Shown here one piece after another: positions 6,972 through 56,600 of a stretch of 64,000 nt of DNA (position 1 is the stretch's first letter; each line of letters begins with the position of its first letter). Where the stretch lies: contig OZ237755.1 in NCBI GenBank assembly GCA_965178125.1, positions 310,001 to 374,000 on the forward strand, in the 5' to 3' direction. The translations under genes were made by a program, and so were the position numbers. The notes below the pieces were generated by a model. It was not told the DNA's origin, searched no databases, and saw nothing but the letters and a program-made list of their open reading frames with translations. This DNA is from Bilabrum cf. latius. Lineage: Eukaryota.

Positions 6972-7811
6972 TTAGCCCGACACATGCTTCTCGATCGCCG
7001 CAGTCACCTGAGAAGCCAGCTCGCCCTCGATGTCCACGGCGCGCAGCGCCTTGAACGGACGCGCCATCTTCGGAAGCGACAGCGGGATCTCCACCGTCTC
7101 ACCGCCCCGGGTCAGGCGCACCTCGAAATACCCGCGGCGAGGACGGACCTCAGGAAGACCTGGGTTGATCACGACCTCCACCCCGGGAGCGCTCGACGCC
7201 AGGCAAAGCTGTAGCTTCGCGGCGGAGCGCTTGAACACGCCTCATTGCTTGCAGGCTTCAATTTCCACAGCCACTGCCGCAGGCTTACCCTTCTTGGATG
7301 ACGTCTTGGCTATCGTTGCCTTGGCCTTTGACGCTTGAGCAGACGCACCGCCGGTGGCAGCGCCGGAGGCACCCCCAGCGCCAGAGCTCTTCGCCTTTCG
7401 GGCCTTCCCCACGGCAGAAGCAGCTGCGGGTTTTCCATCGGCATGCTCCGCGATTGCCGCAGTCACCTGAGAAGCCAGCTCGCCCTCGATGTCCACGGCG
7501 CGCAGCGCCTTGAACGGACGCGCCATCTTCGGAAGCGATAGCGGGATCTCCACCGTCTCACCGCCCCGGGTCAGGCGCACCTCGAAATACCCGCGGCGAG
7601 GACGGACCTCAGGAAGACCTGGGTTGATCACGACCTCCACCCCGGGAGCGCTCGACGCCAGGCAAAGCTGTAGCTTCGCGGCGGAGCGCTTGAACACGCC
7701 TCATTGCTTGCAGGCTTCAATTTCCACGGTCAGTCCAGACTTGGGTTCTTTCCGCGCAGCCTTTGGGCTCTTTGGAGATGAAAGTTGGGCCGATGCCTTG
7801 CGTTTTGGCAT
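6972..7811 (-). CDS. SELENOH: Selenoprotein H-like (Rdx family) with two tandem Rdx domains and two Sec codons, 279 aa
   Basis: Basic N-terminus MPKRKAS. VEIEACKQ-TGA-GVFKR occurs twice (TGA 7701-7703 and 7242-7244) = CxxU. INP...PRRGYFEV motif. Ends TAA 6972. SECIS downstream. Confidence 0.88.
6992..7728. repeat. Near-identical ~275-bp direct repeat, 459-bp period (Rdx domain duplication)
   Basis: ~6992-7268 matches ~7451-7727 with only about two visible substitutions. Confidence 0.93.
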
Positions 7812-8040
7812 TTGGTCTGACCGGTTAGGTAGAATGTGGGAAGATCGGTAGAGGCCACGTGTGCGCTGGATCAGGGATCCATCGTGCGGTGCACTTTCAC
7901 AGCTGCGCCGACTAATTTCGCGCCGAGTTGGCAAAGAAGGTGTCATGTCACATGCGGTGTGGTGGTAGATACACCAAGGAGAGTTACCACGCCCAATGAA
8001 ACTGCGGATCTTAACATGAACACTCTGGCATCTGCATCAT

Positions 8041-11004
8041 TCACTGCCTCCAGAGCGCTTGCCGGATTTCATCCGAGCCGTGTAGGTCGCCTTCTGGGGT
8101 CCCGGTGGCATCCGCAGAGAGCAGCTGCGCTCGCGCCACGTGGAGGGGCACCCCATTGACAGCAGGGCCGCCCCAATACGTCGGCGCGCGGTCCGCTGCA
8201 CTGTCCTTGCCCCCCATTTCACCCTCCACTGCGGAACCAACCGCGCGCGGCGCCGCGCCCGCGAGGAAGCCCATCCTCGCCCGATTGCTCTCCCGAAGGG
8301 CATCCACATCCTCCCCGCGCACCGAGTGCCCCAGCTCCGCCAACGCACTGGCGAGGGAGACCACAGCCTCGCGCGCTCCACTTCCCCTTCCTCCTCCTCC
8401 ACCCACACCGCTCCCCCCAGTCTAGTCTGCTGCAGGCATGGGCAGCACCGCGAGGGCATACGCGCACATCTCCGCCTCGTCCCGAGGCATCGCTGCCACG
8501 ATCCGGAGGGCAGCCGAGGCAGGGTCCGCCGGGACATGCGCCCCTGCCCCTGCACCTGCACCTGCGCCTGCCTCGCGCACCTCCATCCCCTCTCGCACCA
8601 GAGCTGCCATGGCCCCCGACACTCTGGCCTCGGCCTTGCCCAGTGCCCTAAAGTAGTCGTGCGTGTGTCCGTTGAGCCTGGAGGACACGTCTGGCCCCGG
8701 TTGCACCTGCTCCCTCATACGGAGGAACCACTCGCACGCCCTGCTGAGATCCAGGGCCACCTCGCTCCATTCCCTGCCGCTCTCGAGCTCGAGGGGCCCC
8801 CGCATCCCTCGGGAGGCGGGGGCCTCGCTCCTGCCTAAGCGAGAGGCCAACGGTTGTGATTGTGTTCCCTGGCGCGTCCCCTTCGATGCGCCTGCGTTGG
8901 GCTCGGCACGTTGCCCCGTCTCCTTGCGACTCATCAGCTGCTGCACCCCCTTGGGTGCTTCGCCCGAGCTCGCGCTCGCCATCAAACCGGTTAGGGCACT
9001 GCACCCAGATAGGTTCTCTCCCTCCGGGGCCATCTGCAGCGCCCTGCCAGCCGCGCCAGCCAGCAGCCTACCGTGCCTCGCGAAGTCTTGAGGCCTGGAC
9101 AACACAGGGATCACCACTCGCCTGCAGAGAACCCTCTCTGGCAGGCCAGCCACGGCCCCCTTCAGCTCCTTGACCAGCGCCACGCGAGAGGATACGTCGG
9201 CGTCTGCGTCCCGGGCGCATCGCTTCGATTCGGCCACTAGCTCATCGCGCCCCGCAACGATCTCCACCGCCGCGACTGCAGCAGCAGAGGCCCCATCCAC
9301 GGCTCGAAGCAGCCGCTCGATCTGCACCGCGCCTCGATCCAACACAGCACCAGGCTGGCTCGAACCAGCTTCCCCAGACGCGCTCGCGGCCCACTCCTGC
9401 GCCTTGCTGGCGGGAGGCCCGCTGCGGTCTTGCTGCTACAGGGCCTGTGCGCCATCCAAAGATGCAGCCGCCAGCTGCTGTGCCGCAGCAACCGCCTCGC
9501 CCAGCCGAAGGAGCATGGCCTTGGGAACAGACGAGACACCCGCCCCTGCCCGGGCATCCACCAGTCGCCTAGCATCCGTGCACGCGGCACGCAGTCGTGC
9601 TGCAGAAGCCTCCGCAGCGACCGACAGCATCTCGGCCTCCTCTGCGGTCCAGTGCAGGGTGCGCCTGTTGAGCTGCCTGGCGACCGCACCCGCCACGGGG
9701 ACTGCACCGAGGTGGTACGGGCAGTACGCCTTGTCTCGGATGCTCTTGCAGACCCCTTTCATCGACAGTGCTGCCGCTCCCGGCCCAAAAGCAGCCGCAC
9801 GGGATGGCAGAGAAAGCTTCGTCTCCTGCTCACCTGTGCTGCTTCGTCTCCTGCCAGCAGACGGTGCGTTCGAAGAGGCAGACAAAGAAGACGACGACGA
9901 CGTCGCAGTGGCGGTCGACAGCGCCTCTAGGGCCCGGGCGATCGCGAGATCAACACTCAGGGCCGCGGCCTGCCCGCGGTCCCGCTGCTTCTGCTCTTTG
10001 ACTCCCGTCGCCGCGCTGTCCCCCCGCACGCGCTGTCCGCTCGCTACGGCGCGCCAGTGGCCCCGCTGCAGCGACTGCGCCGCGTCCACAACTTCCAGCA
10101 ATCGACCGGGCATGCTACTCGCCATGCCATCCTTCGTGAAACCGTCCACGATCTCCCCCGCACGTCTCGCCAGGCCGGACACCTGATGCCTGGACAGCAG
10201 GTGCTCGCCGAGGCCCTCGCGGTGCGGCTCCATCGCGTCCCCGCCGGCTGCCATAAGAGCACGGCACACGGCCTCTACTTGCGGATCTAGCAGAAGGGCA
10301 GCGCGCTCTACATTCTTAACTTGAACCTGTCTGAAATGGATGCCGGGGCCAGACTCTCGCCTAGCAGCGGCCAAGGCTCGCTTCACTGGCCGGCAAACAT
10401 CAAGCCTAGCACTTGACAATCTCGTGGCTGCGGTAAGGACGGGGTCAATCGCTCGGCCAGTAGAATTCCATTCTAGCAGCGCACCAATTCCAGCCTCGGA
10501 TGCACTCTAAAGGGTCAAGGAAGCTGTCATAGAAGCCGATCGCGTCTCGACTGTTCGAGGCCGTTGTTTCAAGCGTCGACCCTCAGATTCCGGCCTTTTT
10601 GAGACGCCGCCTTCCAAGCCAGACTTGTACTATATTGATTGACTCTTGGGAAGAGCGGCCATGGGCCTCGCTGCGCCGGGGCTTGAGGTGAGGCATCTCG
10701 AAGGAAGCTTCCACAGCTTGCCACCAGAAGCAGGCGTTCCACTGTCAACTCGAACAGTATTTGGGGAAATCGTCTGCTAATTTAGAGACTTATTGACCCT
10801 TCTGTTCATTCCACCGAGTCCTTCATCTCTTGAACCCGTGCATACAGACGAAAATGACTTGACTGGTGGGAGATCGGCGCATCTCGCAGTGTGCGGCTGC
10901 AGCACCGTGCTTCCTTGCAGTTTGTGGATACCCTCTGACGTATCAGGGAGTCTCAAAGATCTAATGATGCACTGGCCAGCTCTAATACTGCCAGACCGTC
11001 TCAT
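8041..11004 (-). CDS. Unknown Ala-rich protein, ~990 aa (start uncertain)
   Basis: ORFs 10777..11253, 9436..10419, 8422..9345 and 8041..8406 share one frame, joined by TAGs at 10777, 10630, 10507, 9436 and 8422. Ends TGA 8041. Confidence 0.6.
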
Positions 11005-11124
11005 GTGTACAGCTGGACCGTCAAATGGAGTCTGTTGTTGTCGAACTAGTCTGGTTAACTGACTCTTTGTAACGTGACGTTTACCCCGAGCACGACCGGC
11101 GGCATTGGGCACGTCTGTGAAGCC

Positions 11125-13168
11125 ATGCAGCGAGTAATTAGGGGCTTGTTCCGTTCCAGGCCTTTTGTGAGGACTGTAACTGGCAGCAGGAGGATGTAGG
11201 GCTGGAACGCGCAGTTTTCCTCTTCGGCTCGATCCAGTGCTGGAACCAGGCACACCTGTCCGTACGGGGACCTGCCTTCGATGCCCACAGCATCTCTTCC
11301 GGATTATATTCTTGAAGTGAGCATAGTGCGGTCATCTTCTCTCCCGCGCGTTCTGCTCTGACGGCCGTAACGTGGGTGGGATCCAGGTTTGCCGGAAAGT
11401 GCAACCCACAAAGATCGTGGCAGGCCGTAAGCCGGTACTGGCCACATGATTACAGCTCCCAGGCGGATTTGGTGTTCATTTTTCTGTGTTTGCATGAGCA
11501 GGAAGCGAAATAGCGCGGTTCGAAGCCCGCCCTTGTCTGCGGAGTATCGTGAGGCTGATGCTGTCGCTCCAGCGGTGCACATTCCCGTGTTCGCGAGGTA
11601 TTCGCCGCAAGTTTTGGCGCACTAGTACTAGCATCGCTACCACGTCTCGCAGGGGTAAAACAGTCACGTACGGCGAGATGCCTGGGTCGGTTCGCAGCGT
11701 AGCGTCCTAGCTGGCCCAACTTGGCGTGTCCTCGGGTGATGTCGTTGGCCTCCAGATGCCCAACAGCCCCGAATTCGTGATTGCATTTCACGCTATCACG
11801 TCCTTGGGAGCCACGTGCACGACGATTAGCTCGCAGTACACCGGGACGGAGATCGCCTTCCAGCTCAAGGAGAGCGGCGCGGGCCTGTTCCTGACGTCCC
11901 CCGTGTTCGAGGAACAAGCCAGGGCGGGGGCCGAGCACGCCGGGCTGGGCGCGGACAAGGTGTGTGTGATTGGCGGCAAGGAAGGCACTGACCCGGTCAC
12001 GGAAGGCATGGCGGACTGGAGCGCGCACGACGGAGACGCGGGAACGCCGATCGCGGTGGACGGCGCCATCAAGGACCCGGCCACCGCCGTGTGCGCGCTT
12101 CCCTTTTCCAGCGGAACCACAGGCATGCCCAAGGGCACCATGCTGACGCACTTGAACATCGCCGCCAACACGGCGCAGATCGTGGAGCACGCGACCCACA
12201 ACCTTGACATGACCGAGCAGGACAAGGTGCTCGGCCTCCTGCCGCTCTACCACATCTACGGCCTCACCGTGCTGGTCAATGCGGCGCTCCGAGTGGGCGC
12301 TACAGTGGTGACCCTCCCGAAATTCGACCCCGCCATGTTCCTTGGCGCCATCGGGCAGCACAAGCTGTCCTGGCTGCCTCTCGTGCCCCCCATCGTCCTC
12401 TTCCTGGCCAAGCATCCCACCGCGGCTGCAGCCGATCTCAGCAGCGTGCGAGTCATCTTCAGCGGCGCTGCGCCCCTGAGCGGGGAGCTGCAGCAGGCGG
12501 CCGAGCAGCGGCTGCAGGGCACCTCGGTGAGGCAGGGGTGGGGCGCCACTGAGATCGCACCGGTTGGAACCATCACGAGCGGGAGATCGCAGAAGGCTGG
12601 CACCACGGGGCAGCTCGTGCCCAACTGCTCCGCCTTTGTGCTGGGCGATGACGGGCAGCCGTTGGAGGGATACGGCTCGGGTGCGACGGGCGAGATCGCG
12701 ATCACCGGCCCCAACATGATGACCGGGTACCTGGGCCGGCCCCTGGACGACCCCGAGACGTTCTTCGTGCATGACGGCACCAAGTACTGGCGCACCGGAG
12801 ACATCGGGTACTTTGACGAAGACGGGCACATGCGGATCGTGGACCGCGCCAAGGAGCTCATCAAGGTCAAGGGCATGCAGGTGGCGCCCGCGGAGCTCGA
12901 GGGGGCGCTTCTGACCCACACCGAGATCGCGGACTGCGCCGTCGTGCCCATCCCGGACGAGAGGGCGGGGGAGCTCCCCAAGGCGTTCGTTGTGCGCGCC
13001 GACACGGACGCGGGCAAGGCCCTGACGGAGGATGCCGTCAAGCACTTCGTGGACGGCATCGTGGCGGAGTACAAGCGCATCGCCGAGGTAGAGTTCATCG
13101 ATGAGATCCCCAAGAGCGCGGCCGGGAAGATCCTCCGCCGGGTGCTGCGGGACAAGCCGAGGCAGTGA
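11125..13168 (+). CDS. 4-coumarate-CoA ligase/luciferase-like acyl-CoA synthetase with a mitochondrial-type presequence
   Basis: Exons 11125-11316, 11502-11548 and 11653-13168. TAGs at 11197, 11511 and 11708. Motifs PFSSGTTGMPKG, QGWGATE, RTGDIG, DRAKELIKVKG, PKSAAGKILRR. Confidence 0.88.
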
Positions 13169-13453: not shown

Positions 13454-16123
13454 TCACAGAGCTTTGAGCTGGTCCAGCAGAGCACTCGCTGCCTGCTCAG
13501 TCTTGTGGCGGTTGGCTGCCTCGAGCTGCTGGGCCTTGGTCTGCTCCTCGTCGAGGGCCTGCATCCTCTTGCGCGCGCTGATCAGCTCGTCCTCCTCCCT
13601 GTCCATGTCCGCCAGGTAGCGCCGCACCAGCGTCGAGGACTGATGCTCGTTCAGGCTTTTTAGGTTATCTCGAAGACGTTTCTGGTTCGAGAAGATGACG
13701 GTGCGCTGTTCCTCGAGCTGTCGCATCTGCCGGCGCTTCTCTGACAGCGTCTGCTCGATCTCAGAGGTGCGCTTGGCGAGGTTCAGCAGCTCTTGCAGCT
13801 TGCCAGCGAACGGCTGGTTGTCCGATGCAGCCACGGTCGCGGCCATCTCCAGCTTGTCTCGGGCCGCAGCAGACCCAAAGCCCCTGTAGGATTGCACAGA
13901 CCTAACCGCGTTCTGGCACTTCTTGATGCGGACCAGGTAGTGGAGGCGCGCGTGGAGCTCTGCGTCGAGCACACCGGCGGACTGCAGGGCGGGCGCCTCA
14001 TCGCGCAGGAACGACTCGATCTCGCCCGTGTCGGCAAGCACGCGCTGGTAGGTGGCCTGCTCCTCCACTTGCAGCTGCTTCTCCTCTGAGGGTGCCAGGG
14101 ACAGCTCGAAGCGGCCGAACCCAGTGACGGCCTTCACGCAGCCCTCCTTGGTAGTGATCTGGTACCCTCCGTGCTGGCTCTTGGCCGAGTGATCCACGTA
14201 GAACTTGGGCACGGCGCGAGTGCCGCTGTTGTTTACGATGGTGTAGACGGTGGTGATAGTCTTCTTGTGCGTGATCTTGCACCCGACGACCCTGCTGCGT
14301 GCCTCCGTGACGGCCGTTGCCACGGGCGACAGGGAAATTACGGTGTTGGTCTGCTTGTCCTTGGGCGTGCTCCGAAGCACACTCACGGTAGAATCCTCGC
14401 CGTACGGCACCAGCGTGTCATCGCCGGGGATCATGGGTGTGAAGTCGGTCTGCCCGACGAACCTGCCGTTCTGCAGCACCGAGATGGAGCCGGGGGCCAG
14501 CACCATGTCCGTGGTGTTGCGCAGGTGCACGCACCGCAGGGCGTTCACCTCGTTCTCCTTGGGGTCGTACACGAGCACGGGCTCCCCACCGATGGGGGTC
14601 TGCGCGATCTGCACCAGCGCTGACTCCATGGCGGGAATCGTCACCGGGGTGTCTACGTCATACACGACGTGCTCTCCCAGCCCGCTCATTTGCGACATGT
14701 CCAGCGCCTCGAACTCCTCCTCTGCGTCAGCGCCTGCGGCCCCGCTCGAGCCGGCGCCGGAGGCGGCTGCCTTCGGGGCACCCCTTAGGCGCAGCACCAG
14801 GTGCAGGGTTGACTCCTTCTGGATGTTGTAGTCCGCCAGAGTGCGGCCGGCCTCCAGCTGCTTCCCTGCGAAAATCAACCGCTGCTGGTCCGGGGGGATG
14901 CCCTCCTTGTCCTGGATCTTCTGCTTCACATTCTCGATCGAGTCAGACGGGTCCACATCGATGGTGATGGTCTTTCCCGTCAGCGTCTTGATAAAGATCT
15001 GCATGCCGCCGCCACCGCCGCCGCCGCGGCTCCGGCTCGAGCTGCTCTCTGTGGCGACCCCCCCGCTGCCACTTGTATTGCCGGTCGCGCCCTGGCGAGC
15101 AGCTGGGGAGAGTTTCTTGAGTATGTCCAGCTGGTTCGCCACGAGGGACAAGCGAACGTTTTCCCAGGGCTCCGAGGAGTGGTTCCGGAGCTGGCCGAGG
15201 ACGGTCAGGCGCACGCCGCCAACGCTCGAGGCGGCGCCGCTCGCAGCACCTCCAGAGGACGCGGTCCCGTCGGAAAGCTCAAGCCTGTACGAGCATTTCC
15301 AGGTCCGCGACGGCGCCAGGTACGATACCTGCAGCTGGTGAGCGTCCTGTGATGCACCCGGCTCATCTTGGCACTTGAACGCGAGAACTGCGGTGTTGGA
15401 ATCGCCAGTCTCGACCGGTTTCTTTTCCTGCGATATGTATGAGTAAACATTACTAGTTACACAATACTTACGCTGATTTTTATTTAGTAGGGCCGCGGAA
15501 AAGGTCCATGCCGGCCAAGATCGCAACCCAACCAATGCCTGAGAACGGAGCTGTTCCCGACATTCTGTGGAAAGCATGTCCCGGCTTTGGCCGTATTGAC
15601 TCACTTCAACTACTTGAGCCAAAGATTTTTGGAGCTGGGCCTTGATGTAAGGGTCCTCGACGGAGCAAGCGACGACCCCGTCTAGATCAACTCGCTGGCA
15701 GACTCCTCCACCGTCGAGGATGATGGCCGCAGAATAGACCGTGCGGGTACCCCTGTCAGTACCAGGAATTGCCTCTTCAGTCTGCTCTACAGAAAGCAGA
15801 TTTCCAGTCACCTCGCGCTCTCTTGTGGTGAGCTTGATTTGTGCACCGGTGAGACCGGAGAGGAAGCCGCCGAGCCCAACTCCCGGGCCTTTGTGGAAAG
15901 GAAAAGTAGGCTTTTTTACTTTCTTTTGCGTGGCAGGATCGAATGACATCGACACTGGGCGCTCACACGACAGCGAAATCGTCTGTGTCGTGAGGTCCTT
16001 GGCGCTCGCGGGGATCTTCAGCACGGCCGTGGAGCCCGGCGCAAGCGCTCCCTCTCTTTCGAGGAAGCACAGATCATTCTTGTACAACGTTACCCTCTTA
16101 ATGTTCAGGCTAGCCACGCTCAT
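13454..16123 (-). CDS. DUF4140/DUF4139-like protein with an internal ubiquitin domain and C-terminal coiled coil
   Basis: ATG 16123 ([10 protein letters not shown]), likely in-frame intron 15428-15604. Motifs SYL...[44 protein letters not shown]. Ubiquitin at 14777-15004. TGA stop. Confidence 0.75.
14777..15004 (-). other. Embedded ubiquitin domain (76 aa) ending LRLRGA
   Basis: [76 protein letters not shown]. Confidence 0.97.
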
Positions 16124-16356
16124 ACTTAACGCCGCCTTCTTTGTGACCTGGTTTGCGTGCAACCCTGCTCGCGCGCGTGCCTCCCCCAGTGTTGGGCGGT
16201 CGCTCCGATCGGATCTGCCAGTGCTTGACTGTGGTTCGTGGCCAGGATTCTGCGGGTGGTCGCTTGGTTGCTGCTGCGTGCAGCGACGCTTGACTTTGGA
16301 AAGATGCACTCAAGACACGGTATGCTGAACTGCTGCAAAGCTCGGTCCCCCGATAC

Positions 16357-18955
16357 TCACCGCGTGGCAGCGACCTCGAAAGAGGTGCTGGCCACCGCGT
16401 CCTGCACGCTGCTCCCAATGAAAGCAGCGTACGTGCCAGGCACCACAGCCCATTGCTCCCTTGAGGGATCGTACACGGACACATCGCGCTCGTCCATCTG
16501 CAACTTGATCGTCTCGGATTGTCCCTGCTTCAAGAAAGCCCGGCCGAACTGCTTGAGGACCTTGTCGGGTTCGCCCGCAGACGACGGGAACGTCAGGTAC
16601 AGGCCCACCACGGCGTACGCATCGCGCTTTCCCGTGTTGGTCACGCTCACTTGAGCAGCGAGGCTCTTGCCATCCACATGGAACCCATCGTACTTGAACG
16701 TGGTGTACGTCATCCCAAAGCCAAACGGATACCTAGGCTTGGTGCCAGTGGCTGTGTACCACCTATATCCTATGAGCAGCTTTTCGGAATACTCTTCCTG
16801 ATTATCCACACCGGGGTACTGCTTCTCGGTGAACCCGATCTCGTTGTTCGAGTTGGGGATTGTCAGCAGCAGGCGGCCAGACGGCGCATAGGCTCCGAAG
16901 AGAAGGTCTGCGATCGCGTTGCCGCCCTCTTGCCCCGGCAGCCAGGCGGTCAGCAACGCCTTCGCGTCGTAGGGCATGAGGAACGCTCCCGGCGAGATCA
17001 CCACCGCGATCGTGTTGGGGTTGCCTTTGAGCGCGCTGGGCAGGAGCGAGTCGATGTCGGGCAGGTCCAGGTTCTCCCTGTCCGCGCCCTCGTGTGAAGT
17101 GGTGGCAAGGACCACGATGGCGATGTCCGCGGATCGGGCCGCGGCCTCTACGGCCGCCGGGTCGGTTCCGTTGTAGTAGCTCACATGTGCAGAGGTTCCA
17201 TCGGTGCCTGCCTGCAGCAGGCGGGGGTAACCGGAGCTGGCTGCCTGCCGCGCTGCCTCTGTGCCTAGGTCGAGCATGGACCGGCGGGCGGCGGCACTTT
17301 GGCCCTCCCCGGCACCCGCAACCGCGTTCAAGATTCCGTCCAGCACAGTCACGACGTAGTACGGTACCACGCTACCGCTGCCACCCCCGCCAGAGATGGG
17401 TTTGGCGTGCGCAGCCGGTCCGATCACTGCAATGGAGGTCTGGCCCTTGGCTACAGCAGCGGCGTCAAGCGGCAGGACATCGTCCTCATTTCTCAACAAA
17501 ACAGAAGACTCCCGAGCCAGCTTGCGCGCCAGCTGGTTCCTCTCGGGGCTGGTTGTGTTCTTCGATGCGTCGTGCTTCTTGGGGTTGTCCATGGCACCGA
17601 TCGTGTACATGGCAGTGAGGACTCGCAGCACCTTGGTGTCAATGACGGACATGGGCACCTTCCCCGACTGCAGGGCCTGCTTGAGCGGCTCTCCGAAGTA
17701 GTTGGGGCGCACTTTGTCGCTCGCGCAGATGAGCGGGTCCTCATTCGACGGTTGCACGCACCCTGGCATCTGGATGTCTAGTCCCCCGAGGGCAGCTCCG
17801 ACCGTGGATTGCGTCCCGCGGTAATCAGACAGGACAAACCCCGTCCAGTTGAGCTTCTGGTGGAGCAGGTAGTTGATGTCGTGGGAGTTCTGGCAGGAGA
17901 ACTCCTGGTTGACTCGGTTGTTCGAGCACATGAACGAAAAGGTGCCTGCCTCGATCGCGCCTTCGTAGGGTCTGAGATAAACCTCAACCAAAGTGCGCTC
18001 GTCTACGTTGGCCGAGACGTTGTGCCTGTTGTTCTCCTGGTTATTTGCGATGTAGTGCTTGCTGCGAAGATTGAACAGGGAGGAGCACGACAGGCACAAC
18101 GATTCCGAGTCGACCAACGCCGACGAGCGCACTTAGGTCGAGGCAGGGCTATAAGGCGGGAAGACGATCGAAGTACTACATATAATATATAGTATCGATA
18201 GTATCCTAATTTACGGGCGGTCGTGTAGGATCGGTTGAGGAGGATACAAGCTCCGCTCACACATTCGCCATCACATTGTGCTGCTGAATTCCCTTAACCA
18301 CAGGCTGCACCATTATGTACCCGAATTTTGGCTCCTCTCCGCTTAAATATTCAAAATTACGACCGCCTTGCGGTATTCTATGAACGTTGACGGCTGGGCC
18401 GAATTGCATGTCACAGCCTTTCTCCGCGAACTCCCCCCCCATCGCGTCGCCGAATGCTTCCATGTTATCCACCGACCACGCTGACGCCACTGACATGCCA
18501 CTTGGCCACTACGTAGAGGTGCCTGCCGGTCCACGGAAGCCTTCAGGCCCATCATTCATTGACATACCTACGGAAACAGAACGGATCGGCTAGATGTGCA
18601 CGCAGCGGCGTACGAATCGCTGCCTTGGTTGCACTTGATGCACCTGCCTTCGATTTTGCAATGCGTGTATCTCTTCCCTCAAGAACCCGATGTCAGTTTA
18701 GATCGTTCATATTAAATCGAAATGCACCGAATTTCCAACTACTTGGTGCACGAAAGGATCGTCCTTGCTCTCACCTGGAAAGCCCAGTCTATCGTTTGGA
18801 ACAAGCCAGCCAACGTATCCCGGTCCACTTCCATTGCCATGAACCATTGCAATCTTCTCATCGAGGGTCATCTTGGAAAGGTACTCCCTTGCACGTTCCG
18901 CTGGCGAAACTGCAACTGCGATTCCGAAAGCAGTCCACACCGCAGGAATCCACAT
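16357..18955 (-). CDS. Secreted GH3 beta-glucosidase
   Basis: Signal peptide, MTLDEK. Introns 18568-18774 and 18062-18260. DGPEGFR, ST-TAG(18509)-WPSG, GGRNFEYLSGE, KHY, MCS, GFVLSDY nucleophile, GYRWY, FnIII-like C-terminus. TGA stop. Confidence 0.93.
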
Positions 18956-22100: not shown

Positions 22101-22380
22101 CTCCAAAAGCATGGATGATGGATGTATACGAGCCGATGGCGTCCGATCCAGAGCTGTAACTTGAGGACTGAATCTTTACAGATGCATTCAGCCTGGGAAT
22201 CGCTATCGATGGGTGCCCTCCAGACAGGAATGGCTCGTCGTCGTTTGTCGCGCCGAGGCTTAGACTCCACTCTCCATTGGATTCAACAGCAAGTGAGCCA
22301 GCAGTATCCAGGTTGCGTACCTCATGACCAAACACACAGAATACAGGCGCTAAAGCGGCAAGGGCGCCGATGCTGAGCAT
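19165..22380 (-). CDS. Secreted putative glycoside hydrolase (clan GH-D/GH36-like barrel) with a PAN/apple-like insert
   Basis: Signal peptide, TAGs at 22021 and 21466, intron 20856-21059. Motifs FWQDHGA, VQWDDWW, MFEQDFL, QLCM, RATRD, RDNVWS, GGPYGPSD, CRKDGVLLK. Cys-pattern segment at ~21640-21800. Confidence 0.6.
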
Positions 22381-22500
22381 GGAAAACAACTGTGTGATGT
22401 TGCTGCACCTCGCGTCGGACGGGTCGCATTTCCTCAGCTCATCTTTGATTCATGCACACCGACAAGCAGGGCCCTGCAGACGAACGGAGCATCCACGCAA

Positions 22501-38667: not shown

Positions 38668-38814
38668 TAGCTTCAGGAAACTCTCAGTGGTTCTAGGAAA
38701 GTCTAGATTCAGTTTCTTGGCCTGCAGTGTGTGACGAGTCCGCATTGATGTAACGCGTACATTACAAAATTGTATTGGTTTAGGACCGACGCATCTATTC
38801 TACTCAACATCGCG

Positions 38815-40833: not shown

Positions 40834-41091
40834 CTGAACGATTGTGGTGGTGCACTGGTGCTGATGCTTAGTGCTGATGCTTGTGCTTTGATTCAGCTAG
40901 ACTGCCGCGCTCAAGTGGGTGCCCTTGCTGCGAGCTTGGATCACGCTGCCTGTGTGTGCGGAGCAGTCGCAGGCTGATCAGAGGAATTAATAAAGTATTT
41001 ACTGAATCCTGGATGTTCAACTTCTCGTAATGCGTCGTTGTATTCAAGTCAATTGGATGGCACCTGACCTCGAAATGGCGCGATACATGCC

Positions 41092-47000: not shown

Positions 47001-50000
47001 CAGAGTACTACGCGATGACCGCGGGAGGCACGATGTCGTCCTCCTCATCTTCGCCATCCTTGCTCTCCTATGCACCGGTTCCTTCCTCTTTCTTCGCCCT
47101 AGCTCTCGCCAGGATCTCCTAGGCCTCCGTCTTGGCCTCCTGCAGCGCCACGTTGGACACCCGCGTGCCGCTCGTGGCCTCGCACAGCAGCAGAGCGGGG
47201 GAGGGCTGCAACTTTGGGGCGATGCCGTGCACGCTGGCGAGCGCCGCCATGATCGAGGGGCGCAGCACGCGATAGCTAAGGAACGACCGAGTGAGCTTCA
47301 GACTGGCTAGGGTCACGTGCGCCTCGCTGCCCTCGGGGATCTCGTGCTTCTTGGGCGCCCCGCACTGCGCCGCTGCCGCTGCCATCGCAATGGCAGCGGC
47401 AGCGGCGCGAGTGTCTCTGGCTGACACCACCTCGCCGCTGAGCTGCAGCGTTGTGGATACGGACAGAGCCTGCGAGCCCGCGAAGTCCGCGAGTCCCCCC
47501 GCCGAGGCACCTTCCGCGGGTGCTCCCAGAGGCTGCTTGAGCAGCACGTGCGGCTGCGAGCCGTCGCCTTCTCCCGCGGCAAGAGCGTCTGCGACAGACT
47601 CTGGGAGACTAGCGTACGCGCGCAGGCAGGCAACGCAGTGTCGAATGAGGCCAGAGGCGGGGCGGGCCACCATGACAGCGCGCAGGACCGGCCACAGGGC
47701 GAAGAAAGAGTGGACGGACGGGATTTTCGCCCCGAACATGCTCTGCTGCTTCGTGATGCAGTCCTTAGTGGCTGGTAGCACTGCAAGGAGCTGCCCGAGG
47801 CTCTTGACAAGCACCTTGCCACGAGCCTGGCCCATCACCGCAGCCCTACCCGCGGAAGTCTCCGAGCCAAGCGGCATGGTGACCTTGATCTGGGGACCTG
47901 CCGGCAGGGAGCCAGTCAAAGAGGCGCCAGCACCTGAAGCTGCCCCCTTGCTGCCTTGCATCGCGCCTAGCAATGGCCCGCCCTTGGATCTCTTGGAAGC
48001 GCTGGCAGATGCTGCGCCCATTGATCCGCCAACCGAGCCGTATGAGAGTGAGACGACAGGACGAACGGCATCCTCAGCCGCACGTTCGGCGCGTGCCGCC
48101 GCACAGAGACACGCTGCCAGGTCACTGACGTAGTCTCTGCCGCGGGACTGCAACACATTCCCTGTGACGCACACCCGAGCAACCGAGTGAGCGAGCCCGC
48201 GCGTGAACTTGGCCCCGATGGAAGCCCCGAGCAGGGGCAGCACGGCAGGCACCACGACTGGCAGCAAGCCCTGCAGGACGGTTGAGTTCTCTCTCAGCAG
48301 CATCTCTAGCCCCTCGCAAGCCAGTGCACCCACTCTGCGCACAGAAAGTACCCAGTTTCGCACGATGGACTGCTCCACTGCGGCAATGGCCTCGGGGTCC
48401 GAGGCGTTACCCATGCCAGCCCCGCTGCCGCCTGCCGGCTGCAAGACGCCGAAGACGGCGGGGCGCCACGAAACGAGGTCAATCGGCACCAGCCCCCCAG
48501 CACCACCCGCGGGCCTCGGCACAAGCCCATCGAACGGGCTCAAGTCTTCCACAGGAGACGCAACGAGCGAAGTTGACAGCAGATCCCGAGAGACCTTCTC
48601 GGACTCGCCGTCATCTCCAGCGTTCGCTCGCCTCTGTTCAAGGACAGCAGCAGCTGCCTTCAGGCCCACAACCTGCTCCTTGCGCAGCGCCACCGGACCC
48701 TGCATAGGGTCGTGTGCAGCGATCTGCTCATCAATGGCACGCACAGGAGCGTCGCCGGCCTGTCTAGCCATCCGCAGCAAGGCAGGCAGCACTTCGGCTA
48801 GCACGAGCGCGGCAGCGCCCGAGCCTGCACCCAGGTGAGCCTCTGGCATCACAGCACCAGCCGTCTCCACCATCCAGGTGGTGCCACGCATCAGCCCCAC
48901 GCAGGCTCGCGTCGCACCCAGGCGCAGAGATGCCACGTGAGCCGCGATACCAGCCCTGCCCGCGAGGTGCGACCGGAGGGCCTTCTCGCTCGTGCCCCTG
49001 ACGAGCAGAAGGTCGATGCACGCGCAGGTCACCGGGGCAAGAGACGCGGCTGCTAGCAGGCTTGACCCTTCGCTGCCCGAGCTGTGCTTGCCCAGTGCTC
49101 CGAAACCGGACGACACATCCTGAGCCTCGGATCTCGACACGCTGCAGTGTCCGCTAATGGTCACGGAATCGGCGGCCTGGAGCGTCGAAGGGAATCCTGC
49201 AAGCTTCACGAGGCCGAGGTACGCATGCTTCCAGAGGGTGTGCCCGCTGGCGATCGAGGGAGAGACCTGCGGGTTGTAGCAGGTCAGCAGCAAGGGCACG
49301 AGGCACATGGAAGCCGCCTCAGCGTGCTGCTCCCGGTCGCCGGCGGCTGCCGAGGCGCAGTCAACGAGCAGGCGGATCGCGTGCCTCAGCGCGGACGTCG
49401 TGGCCTTGGGGCCGTACGTGAGAAGCGGGTAGCTGCGGTGCAGAATACCGTCATCGATGTCGTCGCCAGCGGCGCCAAGGGCTCCGATCGATGTAGCCAC
49501 CTGCGCTCGTGCAGCCTGCGCCTCGCTGCCATCCACGATGGTGGTATCAACCTTTGAGTCAACCAAATCGTTCACTGGAACGGCAGGGAAGGCAGCGTAC
49601 TTGGCATGGGCTGAGCTCTTTGCCTCCGCCGCGATTGCGGCTGCCTCCTCAGTGGTTGGGCTGGAATCGATGCCCGCCACAACTCCGCCTAGCGCAGGCT
49701 GGATGGACTTGCCGCCAAGGGTCAGACCTTCGGGATGCTCCGGCCGGGGCTGCCTCGATCCACCCTTCCCCTTGCCCTTGCCACCGCCTCCTGCTTTGGC
49801 GGCACTCGGGGCTGCGTCTGCGTCTGCCTGCCGCTTCGCCTCGAGCTCCTGATCCTGCACTGCAGCGAACTGCGCCTTTCTCTGCTCTTCAAACTGCTCA
49901 GTGGCGCTCTTGGCATCCTGCAGCTGGCCCTGCCGCATGGTGAACCACATGGCATGCATGAGCAGCGAGAAGCTGTGCATGTCCGAGGCGCAAGCGCGAC

Positions 50001-53000
50001 CGATGGCCGCGGCTGCCGCTCGCCTGACGGCCGCCGCGACGTGCGTAAGGAGCGCAACCAGGGTGCGCCAGAACACGGATGGGGGAGAGTGCGTCGAGTC
50101 GTGGGCCTTGAGGGCCGGTCGGGGGCTCAAGGCAGCCGGGGACGCGAGCTTTTTGGGCGCCTCTTCGGACGATCCGCCGGCACCTGAGCTGGCCTTTCCC
50201 GCAGCAGCCTGCGCCTCGGGCGATTCGGCGGCGTCCTCTTGCGCGAAGCCGTCGGCCTGGCACGTGGACTCGACCACCTCCTGAATGTCCGCGCCAGCAT
50301 TCCCGGCAGTAGCTCCGAGCAAGTCGGAGCGGATGGCCTCTTTGGTAGGCTCGGCGAAAATCTGCGGGTGTGCCGTGGGCCAGCGCAAAGCGATGTCGCC
50401 CATGGTGGCAGCAAGGCACACCAACGACGGCTGCAGACGACGCACGTGGCCCCTGGTCCTGCCCGATGCGAGGAGCAGCGGGTCTGACGACAGGAACGAT
50501 TTCTTCTCAACCAGTGCGCCAAGCAGGTCCACCGCCCCCGGGGCACTCCCCACACAAGGTGCCTTTTTCTTCTTGCTGCCACCGCTCTTCGACGACGACT
50601 TGCCCGTGGCCGCAGCAGATCCTGAAGATTCCTTGCTGCTCTTGCTCTTCTTCCCGCTCTTGCTCTTCTTTCCAGTCGAAGCTGCCGGCATGAGTCCAAG
50701 CATCGCGAAGTCCATGGCGGCGGACTTTGAGCTCTTCTTACTCTTGCCTCCTTTGCTCTTCTTGTCGGAGGATTTCTAGGACCCGCTCCCAGCCCCCGGG
50801 TCCGCAGCCAGGGCAGCCGACGCCGACGCTTTCTTCTTCTTTGAGGACTTGAGCTCGGCCTGCACCTCCGCGCTGGTCTTCTCGATCGCATCCCTGACGG
50901 GCCCTCCTCGGCACGCTGCGCGCAGGAGCGCGCACGCTGCGTAGATCCCGCACGGTGCCGGCGCCAGCGGGTGGCTCGCGGCAAACCAAGCTAGCTGCTG
51001 CAGAGGCTAGACTAGCTTCTCCACGGCAGCTGCAGACTGCTCGGCGCAGGGACCGGATGCCCCGAGGCCCTCTGCAAGAAGACGGGCGAATGCGCCGGCC
51101 TTCCTGAGGGCCACGCTCTCAGCATCCTTGGCCTCGCCCCCGACCACCGCGGCGGCGCCTGCCTCGATGCACTTGGCGAGCACCGACTCGATGGCGGCGG
51201 GCATGCTGCCGAAGGTTCTGCAGACGGCCCCGAGCATGCGGATGCTGCCCTCCGCCGCGGCCGCGTTGGACTCGCCCGAAGCGTGCTCGGTCAGTGTCTT
51301 GATGAGGGCGTCTGCGGCCGGCTTGGCCTGCGCATCGGTGAGTCGAGCAGTGACGCGAACCTCCGCTGCGTCAGACTGCGGGCCGTGCACGAGGTCGGCC
51401 TGTCTGCCCAGCGAGAGTGCGATCGCGTTGATCTCCTCCGATGCGGCGTACGGCAGCGGCCTGGTGCGCGACAGCTCCACGGGCACCGCCGTCGCAGCGG
51501 CGGGACCGCTACCCACAACCTTGCCGGATTCGTCATAGCCAAGCCCGTGGAAAGGTGAGTCTGCCTGGGTCGCGCCCACGCCAGTGGCGAGGGAGCTGGA
51601 GGCAGCTGCAGCCTTCGCGTGCAGGCTGGTGCGGACCGTACCGACCACCGTCTTCAGGCACGTGCCGGGCGCGAAAAGCCCGGCGAGACACGCTGCCAGG
51701 CCTCGCGCCTGAAGCGCGCGCGCCTGCCAAGAGCCCAGAGCTGCCTTTCCCTTGCCGCTGAGCTTCGTGCCGGAACTCTTGGCGACTGCTGCGGCGCAAG
51801 CAGCTGCGGCGGCTCCTTGCGCTACTGCGACAGCAGCAGCGATTGCCCTAATGCAAGCAGCGTGCAGCGTGCCGTCAACTTGCAAAGAACTGAGGCTGCT
51901 ACTGCTCGCAATTGCTTCGCAGCACGAAGCCAGCGCGTCCTGTGGGATGACGTCGCTCGGCAGCGAGGCCAAGAGCGTCGCGAGGCAGTGCAGCTGGGCT
52001 GCAGAGGAGCTGCCAGCCGCCTCTGCTACCATCGCGCCAAGCTCTTGCACGATCGTGTCCCTGCTGTTCACGATGGAGGCCGCCGCAGCGATGGCTGCCT
52101 GTGCTTGGGGAGCCTCGTGTCTCCGCCATGCCCCGTGGCTGGCGCCGCCTGACGCCCCCGCTCCCGAGGAGGCAGCGCCGTGGGCCTGAGACACAGACAC
52201 GGCGGCCTCTGGGTCGGCCATGATGGATGCAATGTGCCTCGTGGCGGAGGACCGCAGCACTTCGGCCCACTCCGGCGCTGGGTCCGACCGGAGCCCCTGC
52301 CTTGCTGCCCTAGCGGCCGTCTCGACGGCGGCCGCGGCGGGCGTCGCGCCGGCCTTGGCCTCTTCAAGGCGAGAGACGACAAACTCGCGAGATTCCTAGG
52401 AGCGCGCCAGAAGGATCGAAGCTTGAGAAATGCAAAGTTGTCTGAACTTGCGCGTCTTCGAGGCACGGTGCTCAGTCCACGCGCCTGCTTTCCGCTGGCA
52501 CAGGTCGCAGGCCCGCAGGATGGCAGCGGTCAATGCTGCGGCTGCGGGCGCTTCGGAGCGGCGCTACTCAACTTCATCAGCTAGTGCTACTGCTTCGTCG
52601 TCGTCGTCGTCGTCAACCTCCGATTGTTTGTGTTCCTGGTTGCCTTCCTGCTGGCTAGAAAGGGACCGGAGTACCGCCTCCGATTCGCGTCTGGCAGTGC
52701 TCCAGCTCGAAAGCAATGCGCACGAGCACCTGACGAAGTGAACGAGCTGTATGTCGTTGTAATCATCAAGTTTTACGTCTCCTGCAGTGGTTGATGAGCT
52801 CGGTGTGCTCAAGAAATCGGTAATTGCAGTTGCGCGCATGCAAAGCAGCTTGGGCGCACGATAGTCCGCTTACCTTTTCGAATGCGTCGTTCATATGCTG
52901 CCAACGCACCGGGATTGGCCCCAAGCTATGAATAGGTCTGCGGAAGCAAGAACTTAAAATCCTGGATTCGCCAGAATGGTCTGAAATGAAATGAACAGCA

Positions 53001-53560: not shown

Positions 53561-53633
53561 ACGCTACAAGTCTTGTCAAAATAACCTTCATCATCGTCGT
53601 GGCAGATCATCAGGTGATCTCCTCGCCCTCGTC

Positions 53634-56600
53634 TCATTTTGTGCCTGTGCCAGAGCCATTGCTGCGAGCGTACGCCGCCAGCCGCGCCCGCACATCCAGG
53701 CGCCTCCTCGCGGGCTGCCCCGATGACTTGCTCTCGCTGGCCCCCGCGCCTGCTGCAGATCCCCTTGATCCCTTGCCCTGACTAGCAGCCGAAGGGCTAT
53801 CCAACGCACTAGGCGAGAAAGCGAAGGCACCTGCGGCAGCGCTCCCCGTCGGCTTGTTCGTGGCCTACTAGCTGGCATCCTGCGTCCCCTACGCACCGGT
53901 GGGCGAAGGCACCTGCTTCTTGACGGGGGAAAACGACGGTGTCACGGCAGAGTTGGAGGCACCATGCAAGCGAGACAACCCGTTCGGCTTCGGGGCCGAC
54001 CGCTGTGCCGTGGCACCGTCGATCTCCGCACCGGTCTCGCCTGCTGTTCTCCGCTGCTCCTCCGCGTGCTCGAGGCAGTCCCGAAGGTTCCTTAGCGCTT
54101 CGACGAACTTCGGGCTGTATCCGCTGCGCTTGATGCTCGCCTTCAGCATATCGTTCATCTTCGCCGGCGGGGTGCGCCGGGCAGCCCACATTCGATGCAC
54201 TGCGCTACGAGTATCCAACAGCCGCTGTCCCTGCCGGGCGCGCTCCATCAGGCGGCTAACTCTTCCTTCCAGCGCCTGCTTCCGCGACACCAGTTCGTCG
54301 CATCTAACGTCAAGCTGCGTGATCCGCCCGGCCACCTGCCTCAGCTTGCCCTGCGCCTGCTCCGCAACGGGCCGCATCCACTCTCCCCGCTGCACCGCCT
54401 GCAGCTCGCTCGCCGCCGCGTCTCTCGTCTCCCTTACCCTGGCCTCTAGTCCCGCCTTGAATGAGTCCAGCATGCGCTCTGCCCTCGCCTCGTATTCTTT
54501 CCTGGCGACTTCCTCCGCGTGCTGTACAGCAGACGCGCGGCGAGCCTCCACCGCAGCTGGCGACTCATCCAGGGGCTCGGAGACCCGCTTGATCAGGTCG
54601 GTCAGGTCACCGGCCCTTCCTTCCGCCGAGCCGTCCGGTACTGCTCCCGCTGCCCGGGCCGCCTCAATCTGCGATTCCATCTCGTACTGCACCACGCTTT
54701 GCGCGAGAGCTCCGAGTTCTTTGCGCTGCTGCTCCCTGATGGCATCTACCGTCTGCCGCATGCGCTCCAGCTCGTTCTCAAGCTTCTCCTTGGACTGCCG
54801 CACCTGCTCCCACTTGCCTTGCTTCACCTCCAGGATTGGCATGAACTGATCAACATGCTGCTTCCAAGCCCTGAGTTCCTCTTCCCGGCGAGACTCCTCC
54901 TCCGCACGGGCAGAAGACATGGATGACTCGGCTGCTGCACCCAGCCGGTCAAACGTTCTTGTGATATGACCCAGCCCAACGGTCGAGTCTGCCACAGCAG
55001 GATCAGCGACAGCGTCCCTCAGTTTCACAGCTTGTCTGGCATAGTCGCGGACCTCGTGCATTTCCATATCGGCGGCAATCACGCCTCGTGCGGTCGAGAG
55101 GCCCTCGCCCAGCCGCGCGCCCACCCGGCCCACCACATCGTACTCAACAGCCGAGGCTTCGGCCATTCCGCAGAGCAACTGCTTTCGGACCATTGCGAGG
55201 TCTTGGCGCCCGTGGAGAACTGCGCTGCGCACGCCAGCAAAGAGCGCGAGTGCAGTCTACGGGCCGCAGAAAACAGCGGCAGCCACTGACTCCCACGACC
55301 GAAGCCGGCGCCAGCGCAGCAGAGCTGACCCAAAGTTCCGTTTGAATGCTTGCGCAAGCTGCACTACCTCCTGTTGGCTGGACTTTGCAGAATCCCTGGC
55401 GGCGCTCGAGAGCGGCGAAGATAGGACCCCGTGGATGGAAGGAAACAGGGCATCGCGACCAGCAGCCTGCGATACCAAATCCTTTGCCTTGGCCTCGTAC
55501 TCGCCGCGAACCCGCTGCAGCAGCGCGCTTACCACACGATCAGTTTCGGAGAGTGGGTCGGGCATCTTGACCTGAGGACCTGCCAGATCGTGGGCGTCGT
55601 CTCGCACAACAAGGGACGTACTAGCCGAAGCAAGGCTCCCCTGAATGCCTGCGGCCTTTGGGTCACTGCGCGCGTCTGCGGCAGACTTCACCTTGTACGG
55701 AATTGGCAGTCCATCCGCGCGGGCGATCTCATGTCCCTCTGCAGAGGGAGTCCAGGCGTATGGGCCTGAGGACATATCCTTCTTCGTCGCAAGCGCCTTG
55801 AGACGCTGCTTGCCCTCGGCTGGCAGCTTGTTTGCCGCGTAGTCTTCAGGATCCTGCACGGCGGCCAAATCGACCCCGCTTCGCTCAAGCAGCCCAGTGA
55901 GAGCCTGGCGCCTGCGCTGCTGCCTGAGCCGGATATCTCCCACGTCCAGGATTCCATCCAGGCCAGAGGTCGCAACGTCATTCTCTGGAACGAGCAGGAG
56001 GTCGTTTGCTTCTCTTTCTGCCTCGCCTGCATTGGACTGCAGCGCGGCCAGATCCTCCTCCCAGCCCAACAGGTCTCGTTTGCCAACAACTCCGCGGAGC
56101 GCCCGCTCTCTAGGTGACTGGGTAAGCTGCTGCAGGCTAGCTGAGGCTGGCGAGCCCGACGGTAGCGGGCTCGAGGCCGGTGATCGAGCGCGGGCATAAT
56201 TGGAAGCTCCTGGCGTGACGGGATGCTTCGTTTCGGTGCCCGGGGAGGGGACAGACCTGGGCAGAGCAGGCGGCTGCTGCTGCCGGTCACTCATATCTGA
56301 GTCATCTGCGCGAACTAGTTCTCGCGGCTGGTCGGCGTGCTCTGAAGGCAGCAGTTCGATCTTGCGCCTGCCTTGCAGCAACACGGGATCCAATGGAGGC
56401 GTGGGCGGCCGGGCACTGGCAGGCGCAGGCGCTGGAGCCTGTGGCGATCGTGCTGATTCAGATTGGGCTCTGTGCGCCCGCATCGGAGAGAACAGACCCA
56501 TAGCCGGATGCTGGCTCGCGGCAGCATCGATCGGATTCTCGCGCTGGCTGGAGTAGTCTCGAGTCGCCGTCGATTCCGATGGCAGCTGGACGTTCTGGCC

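Follow-up and report, generated by a model that had tools for sequence, protein, structure and literature searches.

A probable UAG-only sense-codon code, with UAA and UGA as terminators, in the nuclear DNA of a GC-rich microbial eukaryote

INTRODUCTION

UAR encodes glutamine (NCBI table 6) in many ciliates, Hexamita, Streblomastix, ulvophytes, and Amoeboaphelidium, and in these organisms UAA as well as UAG is read as glutamine. In the parts of the literature drawn on here, only a handful of lineages are recorded in which the two codons have been decoupled (PMC5304391; PMC11687900), and codes that reassign UAG alone have been published for about eight. The fornicate Iotanema spirale uses UAG for glutamine and UAA and UGA as stops (PMC5304391). 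Three ciliates, Hartmannula sinica, Trochilia petrani, and Protocruzia tuzeti, have a table 15-type code in which only UAG is glutamine, and in the same source UAA makes up 86.9 to 98.3% of their stops and UGA is used least (PMC11687900). UAG is leucine in the rhizarian exLh and in TARA phyllopharyngeans and serine in Scotinosphaera (PMC5304391; PMC11687900). For codes of this type, a mechanism involving both a tRNA and the release factor eRF1 is argued in section 9 of PMC5304391 and in the Discussion of PMC11687900; the eRF1 N-domain carries T32G in Iotanema and L69A in exLh. The list of UAG-only cases in an earlier, sequence-only reading of the DNA studied here was incomplete, since Protocruzia, Hartmannula, Trochilia, the TARA phyllopharyngeans, and Scotinosphaera have also been published (PMC11687900).

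Here we analyze a 64-kb stretch of DNA (the window) that probably uses a variant nuclear code in which UAG behaves like any other sense codon and most likely specifies glutamine, while UAA and UGA are terminators. A UAG-only code is a rare but previously described type of code change. On the best explanation of the data, the window comes from the nuclear genome of a microbial eukaryote whose DNA is rich in GC, densely packed with genes, and poor in introns. The case resembles Iotanema in that a non-ciliate has reassigned UAG alone, probably to glutamine, and has kept UAA as a terminator; the proposed mechanism, a tRNA-Gln(CUA) together with an altered eRF1, is also the same. It differs in that UAA is the primary stop in Iotanema, whereas UGA closes 16 of 18 genes here, and in that the genome is GC-rich (62% in the 64-kb window) and carries P450s and a selenoprotein. 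Nothing ties this genome to fornicates; its GCN1 protein is nearest to stramenopile proteins, at only about 38% identity. With the three ciliates it shares the use of UAG as sense in most genes and of UAA never as sense, but here the order of stop codon preference runs the other way. The long, multi-gene, GC-rich DNA with its spliceosomal introns does not resemble a typical ciliate macronucleus, and the host does not look like a ciliate. As in exLh, the TARA phyllopharyngeans, and Scotinosphaera, UAG and UAA are decoupled and UAA is kept as a stop, but leucine is rejected and serine disfavored as the meaning of UAG. The UAR = Gln codes are similar in that a stop codon was reassigned to glutamine, presumably via a mutated tRNA-Gln; they differ from the present case, where TAA and TAG occur in frame 0 and 61 times, respectively, in the window and 0 and 12 times in a related contig. 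Unlike the published UAG-only codes, as covered by the literature used here, this one belongs to a GC-rich genome and has UGA rather than UAA as its preferred stop.

RESULTS

Nineteen gene models containing 17,439 codons were built in the window. Seventeen of them (14,012 codons) are supported by Pfam matches or by spliced RNA-like contigs; the other two are very long ORFs without a known family (8041-11331 and 53634-61037). In-frame TAG occurred 61 times in the full set and 41 times in the supported models, TAA was absent from both, and TGA was present twice, both times at a CxxU site of an Rdx selenoprotein. TAG was found in 15 of the 19 models. An open-ended ORF at 62022-63998 has 10 further TAG codons, which would raise the total to 71, and an ORF at 28432-29514 (2 TAG, no family, little cover) was excluded from all counts. 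When TAG was treated as a stop, no ORF in the window exceeded 1395 amino acids; when it was not, ORFs of 3925 (GCN1) and 2467 amino acids appeared. The sequence-only reading had counted about 80 internal TAG codons, a figure that was somewhat high. It had also found no internal in-frame TAA in any reconstructed gene although CAA is used, and this is what the present models show (111 CAA and 528 CAG).

A GH116 glucosylceramidase-like gene (838-4416, minus strand) has three in-frame TAG codons and ends in TGA. The GH79 gene (4833-6534, plus strand) consists of two exons in different frames, with one TAG (5130) and a TGA end. Two minus-strand ORFs at 4529-5434 and 5412-6887, with 13 TAG codons, are antisense artifacts of this plus-strand gene and were dropped; they may account for part of the earlier excess of TAG. 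The selenoprotein coding sequence (6975-7811, minus strand, 279 codons) has two tandem Rdx-like domains (Pfam Rdx PF10262, 32.9 bits against a cutoff of 22.6). Each domain has a CKQU motif in which TGA specifies selenocysteine (7701-7703 and 7242-7244), and these are the sole in-frame TGA codons in the gene set. No SECIS family was found in the 3′ region of this gene, where an Rfam E-value scan gave chance-level matches only. The family-less ORF at 8041-11331 (minus strand, 1096 codons) has five TAG codons, the AMP-binding (acyl-CoA ligase-like) gene at 11498-13168 (plus strand) has one (11708), and the gene for a DUF4139 protein with an inserted ubiquitin domain (13454-16309, minus strand) has none; all three end in TGA. 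A GH3 beta-glucosidase-like gene with at least three exons (16357-18931, minus strand) has one TAG (18509) and a TGA end, and the in-frame TAAs upstream of its last exon are intronic. Two ORFs of 595 and 466 codons at 19165-22449 (minus strand), probably one gene, contain two TAG codons and end in TGA at 19165.

Every gene in the following stretch ends in TGA unless otherwise stated. The BNR/sortilin-like gene (22501-25416, minus strand) has four TAG codons, a WD-repeat gene (25916-28372, plus strand) has five, and a spliced LIS1/PAC1-like WD40 gene (29527-31549, minus strand; introns 31082-31172 and 31550-31630) has two. An FkbM-type methyltransferase gene (31859-33085, plus strand) has one (33044). 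The coding sequence of an MFS, or monocarboxylate-transporter-like, protein (33300-35294, plus strand; Pfam MFS_1, 118 bits) has eight, at 33417, 33594, 33651, 33681, 33783, 33990, 34293, and 35208, and ends in TAA. The AAT-family acyltransferase-like coding sequence (35488-36963, minus strand) has none. A PLD-like gene (37132-38675, minus strand; intron 38437-38568) has one (38326), and the last exon of a cytochrome P450 gene (39124-40833, plus strand), preceded by an intron at 38929-39123 with a GT..AG joint, has two (39490 and 39991). The GCN1 homologue is a single 3925-codon ORF (41092-52869, minus strand) with 10 TAG and no TAA codons and a TGA end at 41092-41094. Its best matches come from stramenopiles, oomycetes among them, but at identities of about 38% they do not place the organism, and the ESM Atlas likewise pointed to no taxon. 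A protein search with a GCN1 piece containing five TAG codons returned no near relatives, only distant homologues of 39 to 48% identity. Finally, a low-complexity ORF of 2467 codons without a known family (53634-61037, minus strand) has 15 TAG and no TAA codons. The span given in the sequence-only reading ended at 53636, the final base of the stop of this ORF.

Contigs from two sequencing runs, X5 and X6, are broken at the ends of genes and lack four introns with GT..AG borders. The type of these runs is unrecorded and neither is on record as RNA; we call them RNA-like only because their contigs skip introns. The intron-skipping contigs retain the TAG codons unchanged. Of the 25 TAG positions in 21001-41000, 23 lie in the X5 pieces listed, which show no differences, and a single unspliced RNA-like contig spans the MFS gene (33302-35362), again with no differences. 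No TAG/CAG polymorphism was seen in the aligned reads, in which differences were listed only at 32620-32983. Because TAG occurs inside conserved, transcribed reading frames, we read UAG as a sense codon.

The two sense off-frames of the same genes contain 40 and 43 TAA, the antisense frames contain 12, 33, and 55, and about 7 were found in the 540 in-frame codons directly downstream of 18 stops. From position-specific base composition, 66 in-frame TAA codons would be expected, and none was observed. The result is not circular, because ORFs bounded by TGA alone also lack internal TAA in their coding parts: in coding frames, TAA was present only before the first ATG (GCN1, the WD gene, and FkbM), in frame-changing introns (GH3 and GH79), or at the end of the MFS gene.

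A related metagenome contig, L001 (3.8 kb, GC3 of 0.50), carries an orthologue of the MFS gene. This orthologue has 12 TAG, 0 TAA, 7 CAA, and 7 CAG codons (P of zero TAA, 2.4e-4) and stops at TGA. The pattern of UAG as sense and UAA as not sense is shared by a related organism. The sequence-only reading had cautioned that TAA might merely be rare through high GC, a concern that this contig answers; the missing TAA is not due to GC bias. Its central claim, that UAG has become a sense codon, that UAA has not, and that most genes stop at UGA, is supported by the window counts together with a contig of unbiased GC3.

Of the 18 genes with a complete end, 16 stop at TGA and 2 at TAA, and none requires TAG. 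UGA is the terminator for about nine genes in ten and also encodes selenocysteine in one gene. The earlier observations that nearly all genes end in TGA, and that TAA ends are confined to the selenoprotein (6972) and MCT (35295) genes, were both borne out. In the selenoprotein gene, the ORF reads ...AAIEKHVSG and then TAA (6972-6974, minus strand), and the second domain finishes at this codon. The next in-frame TGA is 28 codons on, and the DNA tail past the TAA is not clearly non-coding. At the TAA of the MFS gene (35295-35297, plus strand), GC-rich coding sequence gives way to AT-rich DNA. A second in-frame TAA follows after 9 codons and a TGA after 14, and the RNA-like contig stops 65 nt beyond the first TAA.

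The meaning of UAG was evaluated by Pfam scores and by a column test of homologous sites. Summed over eight families, the Pfam bit scores were 968.3 for glutamine, 964.4 for glutamate, and 964.5 for arginine. In two families, glutamine scored 326.0 and asparagine 326.6, and glutamine, asparagine, glutamate, and histidine fell within about 2 bits of one another. Leucine (311.3), tyrosine (314.9), and tryptophan (301.3) were rejected on these two families. Serine is disfavored by its Pfam score (320.4) and by the column test, which over 10 sites gave 7.95 bits for arginine, 4.51 for glutamine, -6.84 for glutamate, -7.1 for serine, and -13.2 for leucine. Glutamine is the commonest residue at both P450 site 290 (TAG 39991) and GCN1 site 2307; it is present in 40 of 147 homologues at the former, among them the two closest (79% and 54% identity), and in 4 of 12 at the latter. 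Glutamine is most likely the meaning of UAG and is the best supported by these alignments, by a narrow margin.

Several other accounts of these data were weighed. In an ordinary coupled reassignment, UAA and UAG would both be glutamine (table 6), and UAA would have gone unseen through GC pressure and a small sample. GC3 is 0.63 to 0.85 in window genes, where only 12 of 17,439 codons are TTA, as such an account would have it, but codon ratios predict 5.5 to 16.7 in-frame TAA codons where 0 were observed. The CAA/CAG ratio gives 12.8 if the two codons are coupled (P of zero, 8.8e-6), and even the most lenient ratio, TTA/TTG, gives 5.5 (P = 0.005); P is 7.8e-5 under AAA/AAG and 3.8e-7 under GAA/GAG. 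Two ORFs are closed by TAA, and L001 lacks TAA at equal use of CAA and CAG. Coupling is therefore disfavored, and we regard it as the least probable of the alternatives. Hardly more credible is an unassigned UAA, neither sense nor an efficient stop, with all genes really ending at UGA and the two TAA ends incidental. Just 2 of 18 ends are TAA, and in both cases a TGA lies at most 28 codons later. However, the AT-rich DNA with a second in-frame TAA past the MFS TAA is unlike the coding stretches here, which have no TAA in 17,439 codons. An unassigned codon would stall ribosomes, and its avoidance would be expected at those two places too. A context-dependent UAG, read as sense within genes but retained as a stop close to the ends of some mRNAs, in the manner of UAR and UGA in Condylostoma, is a shade better placed but still very improbable. 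ORF calling is blind to a TAG that also terminates, and the last 12 codons before the L001 TGA contain three TAG codons, possibly the mark of a TAG stop that is or once was in use. Against this, no gene end needs a TAG stop, the tails past the last TAG of the FkbM (33044) and MFS (35208) genes keep a high GC content and a coding character until the TGA or TAA is reached, and the last 30 codons of 18 genes contain 2 TAG codons, compared with about 1.9 expected from the overall rate.

An alternative that we consider unlikely, though deserving of more weight than these three, is that the code is decoupled but that UAG specifies another polar residue, glutamate foremost, or else asparagine, histidine, arginine, or lysine. 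Between the window and L001, its nearest relative, TAG faces GAA at three sites and each of CAG, CAC, AAT, and TAG at one. The table 15-like assignment of the sequence-only reading is the best supported, glutamine leading or nearly leading both tests, but these pairings count against it. The closeness of the four residues in the two-family scoring, where asparagine is just above glutamine, and the first place of arginine in the column test also favor another residue, and glutamate is present in several homologues at MFS sites 40 and 162. Use of UAG for glutamate is reported from a ciliate (PMC10553269). On the other hand, glutamine is the sole residue near the top of both tests, and UAG as arginine would require two anticodon changes. 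It scores at least as well as glutamate in all eight Pfam families (3.9 bits in total) and is ahead of it by 11 bits in the column test. It is also the residue of the two nearest P450 relatives at site 290, and one L001 TAG sits where the window and the relative P0010 both carry glutamine (RDFAQFAL).

DISCUSSION

The decoupled code, with UAG probably read as glutamine, could have arisen through paired changes in a tRNA and in eRF1. A descendant of tRNA-Gln(CUG) carrying the anticodon CUA would read UAG and would not pair with UAA, and eRF1 would have lost or weakened its recognition of UAG while retaining that of UAA and UGA. This mechanism is inferred for the present genome; within the 64-kb window, a tRNA scan found no tRNA genes, Rfam gave no matches at gathering thresholds, and eRF1 is not among the genes present.

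The code may represent an unreported independent origin of UAG-only reassignment, in a GC-rich non-ciliate lineage with uncultured metagenome relatives that share the trait. It would then also be the first of its kind to rely mainly on UGA rather than UAA for termination, with UGA additionally serving as selenocysteine. We put this forward tentatively, as a possibility that falls somewhat short of an even chance. The literature yielded no UAG-only code from a non-ciliate with high GC, which is weak evidence that none is in print because the search was made without the name of the organism. If the origin is indeed new, UAG was captured in a genome whose GC pressure would not be expected to deplete it, and an ambiguous-intermediate route would be favored over codon disappearance.

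Lineages that give UAG and UAA separate meanings serve as natural experiments, showing that the translation apparatus can distinguish the two codons. A further case in a new genomic setting (62% GC, with UGA serving both as the chief stop and as selenocysteine) would broaden the conditions under which such a change can occur and would supply another eRF1 and tRNA pair for comparison. The case covers 64 kb and one 3.8-kb relative, with just two TAA gene ends. There is also a practical consequence for annotation. Gene callers that assume the standard code would cut short or break up 15 of the 19 models, and database fragments of relatives already have this appearance; one of them, P0026, begins 8 residues past a TAG site.

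Gene content and in-frame stop codons of the window

The window has a GC content of 62% and carries about 20 tightly packed eukaryotic genes on both strands. Genes identified with Pfam encode GH116, GH79, an Rdx-type selenoprotein (6975-7811, minus strand), an AMP-binding ligase, a DUF4139 protein with inserted ubiquitin (13454-16309, minus strand), GH3, a BNR/sortilin-like protein, two WD-repeat proteins (one LIS1/PAC1-like), an FkbM methyltransferase, an MFS/monocarboxylate-type transporter, an AAT-family protein, a PLD-like protein, a cytochrome P450 (39124-40833) and GCN1 (3925 codons). GCN1 was closest to proteins of stramenopiles, oomycetes among them, with an identity of only ~38%. Introns are sparse and short. 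Four GT..AG intervals (31082-31172, 31550-31630, 38437-38568 and 38929-39123) are missing from contigs of X5 and X6, two public runs, and these contigs also end at gene boundaries; GH3 and GH79 have exons in differing frames. Scans of the window returned no tRNA genes and no Rfam matches.

With the three standard stops closed, the longest ORF in the window was 1395 aa. Opening TAG produced ORFs of 3925 and 2467 aa, while opening TAA on top of TAG lengthened the longest ORF by only 7 codons. In-frame codons were counted in 19 gene models cut back to the first ATG or a known exon border; 17 have a Pfam domain or RNA-like contigs, and two are very long family-less ORFs. The 17,439 codons included 61 TAG (in 15 of the 19 models), no TAA and two TGA, both at a Sec position, one in each CKQU motif of the tandem Rdx protein. 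Restricting the count to the 17 supported models (14,012 codons) left 41 TAG and no TAA. A sequence-only reading of the window had reported no internal in-frame TAA, as we found, and about 80 in-frame TAG; TAG as a sense codon was upheld, with a figure a little high (61, plus 10 in an open-ended ORF at 62022-63998 that lies outside this count). Minus-strand ORFs at 4529-6887 (13 TAG) were rejected as genes because they are antisense to GH79; they are open only through their position opposite this high-GC3 gene and are a trap for TAG counts. The 2467-codon ORF (53634-61037, minus strand) consists mostly of two low-complexity arrays, with SGSKPASPKP-type and KADAA-type repeats, and several units of the latter have TAG in place of AAG (Lys).

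TAG is really translated, being neither edited nor broken. Pieces of run X5 covered at least 23 of the 25 TAG positions in 21001-41000, with zero differences. The run type is not on record, and X5 contigs were taken as RNA-derived because they skip introns. Short, GC-rich coding repeats of low complexity (Ala/Gly/Glu) at 30378-30411, 30687-30720 and 27827-27927 drew many contigs from all four runs, to depths of ≤325, and assembly pieces break there. Two database fragments, P0026 and P0027, are 95% and 79% identical to the window P450. The 95%-identical fragment begins at a Met 8 residues past the in-frame TAG at site 290, a start that would be expected had TAG halted a standard-code gene caller.

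The absence of in-frame TAA exceeds GC bias

In a GC-rich genome TAA might merely be rare, a caveat that the sequence-only reading itself raised. However, A-ending partner codons are used regularly, which means that a TAA coupled to TAG should have appeared. Scaling the ratio of A-ending to G-ending codons to the 61 TAG gave 12.8 expected TAA from CAA/CAG (111/528; P of zero, 8.8e-6), 10.2 from AAA/AAG (111/662; 7.8e-5), 16.7 from GAA/GAG (189/689; 3.8e-7) and, most leniently, 5.5 from TTA/TTG (12/134; 0.005). In the same genes TAA occurred 40 and 43 times in the other two sense frames; the three antisense frames had 12, 33 and 55 TAA, and about 7 TAA were found among 540 in-frame codons directly downstream of 18 stops. 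The test is not circular. When ORFs were bounded by TGA alone, coding-frame TAA was restricted to positions before the first ATG (GCN1, a WD gene and FkbM), frame-changing introns (GH3 and GH79) and the end of the MFS gene.

The same caveat was checked in a metagenome contig of a related organism (L001, 1-3763; 54.5% GC), which carries an orthologue of the MFS transporter. Identity to the window protein is 397 of 609 aligned residues and is far higher in the membrane domains. Gene order is as in the window, with a LIS1 exon upstream of MFS on the opposite strand, but the FkbM gene between them is missing. At a GC3 of 0.50, this orthologue has 12 TAG and no TAA, alongside 7 CAA and 7 CAG (P of zero TAA, 2.4e-4), and ends in TGA. 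One TAG is common to both genes (GFSC-TAG-LVPSTVV); the other L001 TAGs fall at differing codons. Three TAG lie in its last 12 codons ahead of TGA. The absence of in-frame TAA is thus confirmed as more than GC bias, and well beyond chance.

UGA is the main stop and UAA terminates

TGA closes 16 of 18 complete genes, in agreement with the claim that UGA is the main stop, and TAA closes two, exactly where it had been placed: 6972-6974 (selenoprotein) and 35295-35297 (MFS). UAA does terminate. The MFS gene is GC-rich and coding-like before its TAA and AT-rich after it, where another in-frame TAA follows nine codons later; the gene's RNA-like contig stops 65 nt past the first TAA, where the contig of the convergent AAT transcript starts. 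The selenoprotein TAA marks the end of the second Rdx domain, and the tail beyond is less clearly non-coding.

UAG probably encodes glutamine

Two tests of TAG meaning used the same sites and different homologue sets. At P450 site 290, 147 homologues carried Gln 40, Arg 29, Lys 28, Thr 16 and Glu 8 times, and Gln also occupies the site in both of the closest relatives, at 79% and 54% identity. Among 12 homologues of GCN1, site 2307 had Gln 4, Val 4, Arg 3 and Ile 1, and MFS site 128 had Arg 5 and Gln 4 among 17. Summed over 10 non-gappy sites, column log-odds were Arg +7.95, Gln +4.51, Ala -1.2, Glu -6.84, Ser -7.1, Leu -13.2 and Tyr -22.1. In the second test, TAG was re-translated as various residues and scored against Pfam. 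Scores for MFS_1 plus p450 were N 326.6, Q 326.0, E 325.4, H 324.9, K 323.6, R 321.6, S 320.4, A 315.8, Y 314.9, L 311.3 and W 301.3. Across eight families, for which Q, E and R were tried, totals were Q 968.3, E 964.4 and R 964.5, with Q equal to or above E in all eight.

Leu, Tyr and Trp were rejected. Glu or another polar residue is a less probable but serious alternative: Glu is favoured at MFS sites 40 and 162, and between the window and L001, TAG paired three times with GAA and once each with CAG, CAC, AAT and TAG, a pairing that counts against Gln. Gln, which is the usual outcome of such reassignments, was the sole residue near the top in both tests, and on these alignments UAG probably encodes Gln. 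Of the proposed table-15-like code, sense UAG and its decoupling from UAA are supported, and the Gln assignment is probable.

Comparison with known UAG-only codes

That UAG can change alone has been argued from tRNA and eRF1 in section 9 of Pánek et al. (PMC5304391) and the Discussion of McGowan et al. (PMC11687900). By analogy, a tRNA with a CUA anticodon would pair with UAG and not with UAA, so that UAG could change meaning alone; a UUA anticodon, by contrast, would read both. The remaining step would be an eRF1 that recognises UAG less well.

UAG-only codes named in PMC11687900 include those of rhizarian exLh (Leu), Iotanema spirale (Gln), Scotinosphaera (Ser), TARA phyllopharyngean ciliates (Leu) and Hartmannula sinica, Trochilia petrani and Protocruzia tuzeti (all Gln). 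Like these, the window decouples UAG from UAA, and it probably shares the amino acid, but its genome is GC-rich, unlike the published cases, and its main stop is UGA (16/18), whereas PMC5304391 gives UAA for Iotanema. No evidence places it among the named lineages. We found no matching case in the literature searched, but one may exist. An independent, unreported origin, if true, would raise the interest of this code.

Domain architecture of two minus-strand genes

The DUF4139 protein contains a whole ubiquitin domain mid-protein (Pfam, 103.9 bits), a pairing also present in a eukaryotic cluster of the ESM Atlas. The selenoprotein, one of only two window genes closed by TAA, carries an Rdx-like domain duplicated in tandem; the copies are nearly identical, each has CKQ-TGA (Sec), and a Lys/Ala/Ser-rich linker connects them. 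Its 3′ region gave no match to an Rfam SECIS family. A hairpin there (~6700-6775, minus strand), with ATGA in the 5′ arm, an A-rich apex and TGAT in the 3′ arm, looks by eye like a SECIS core.
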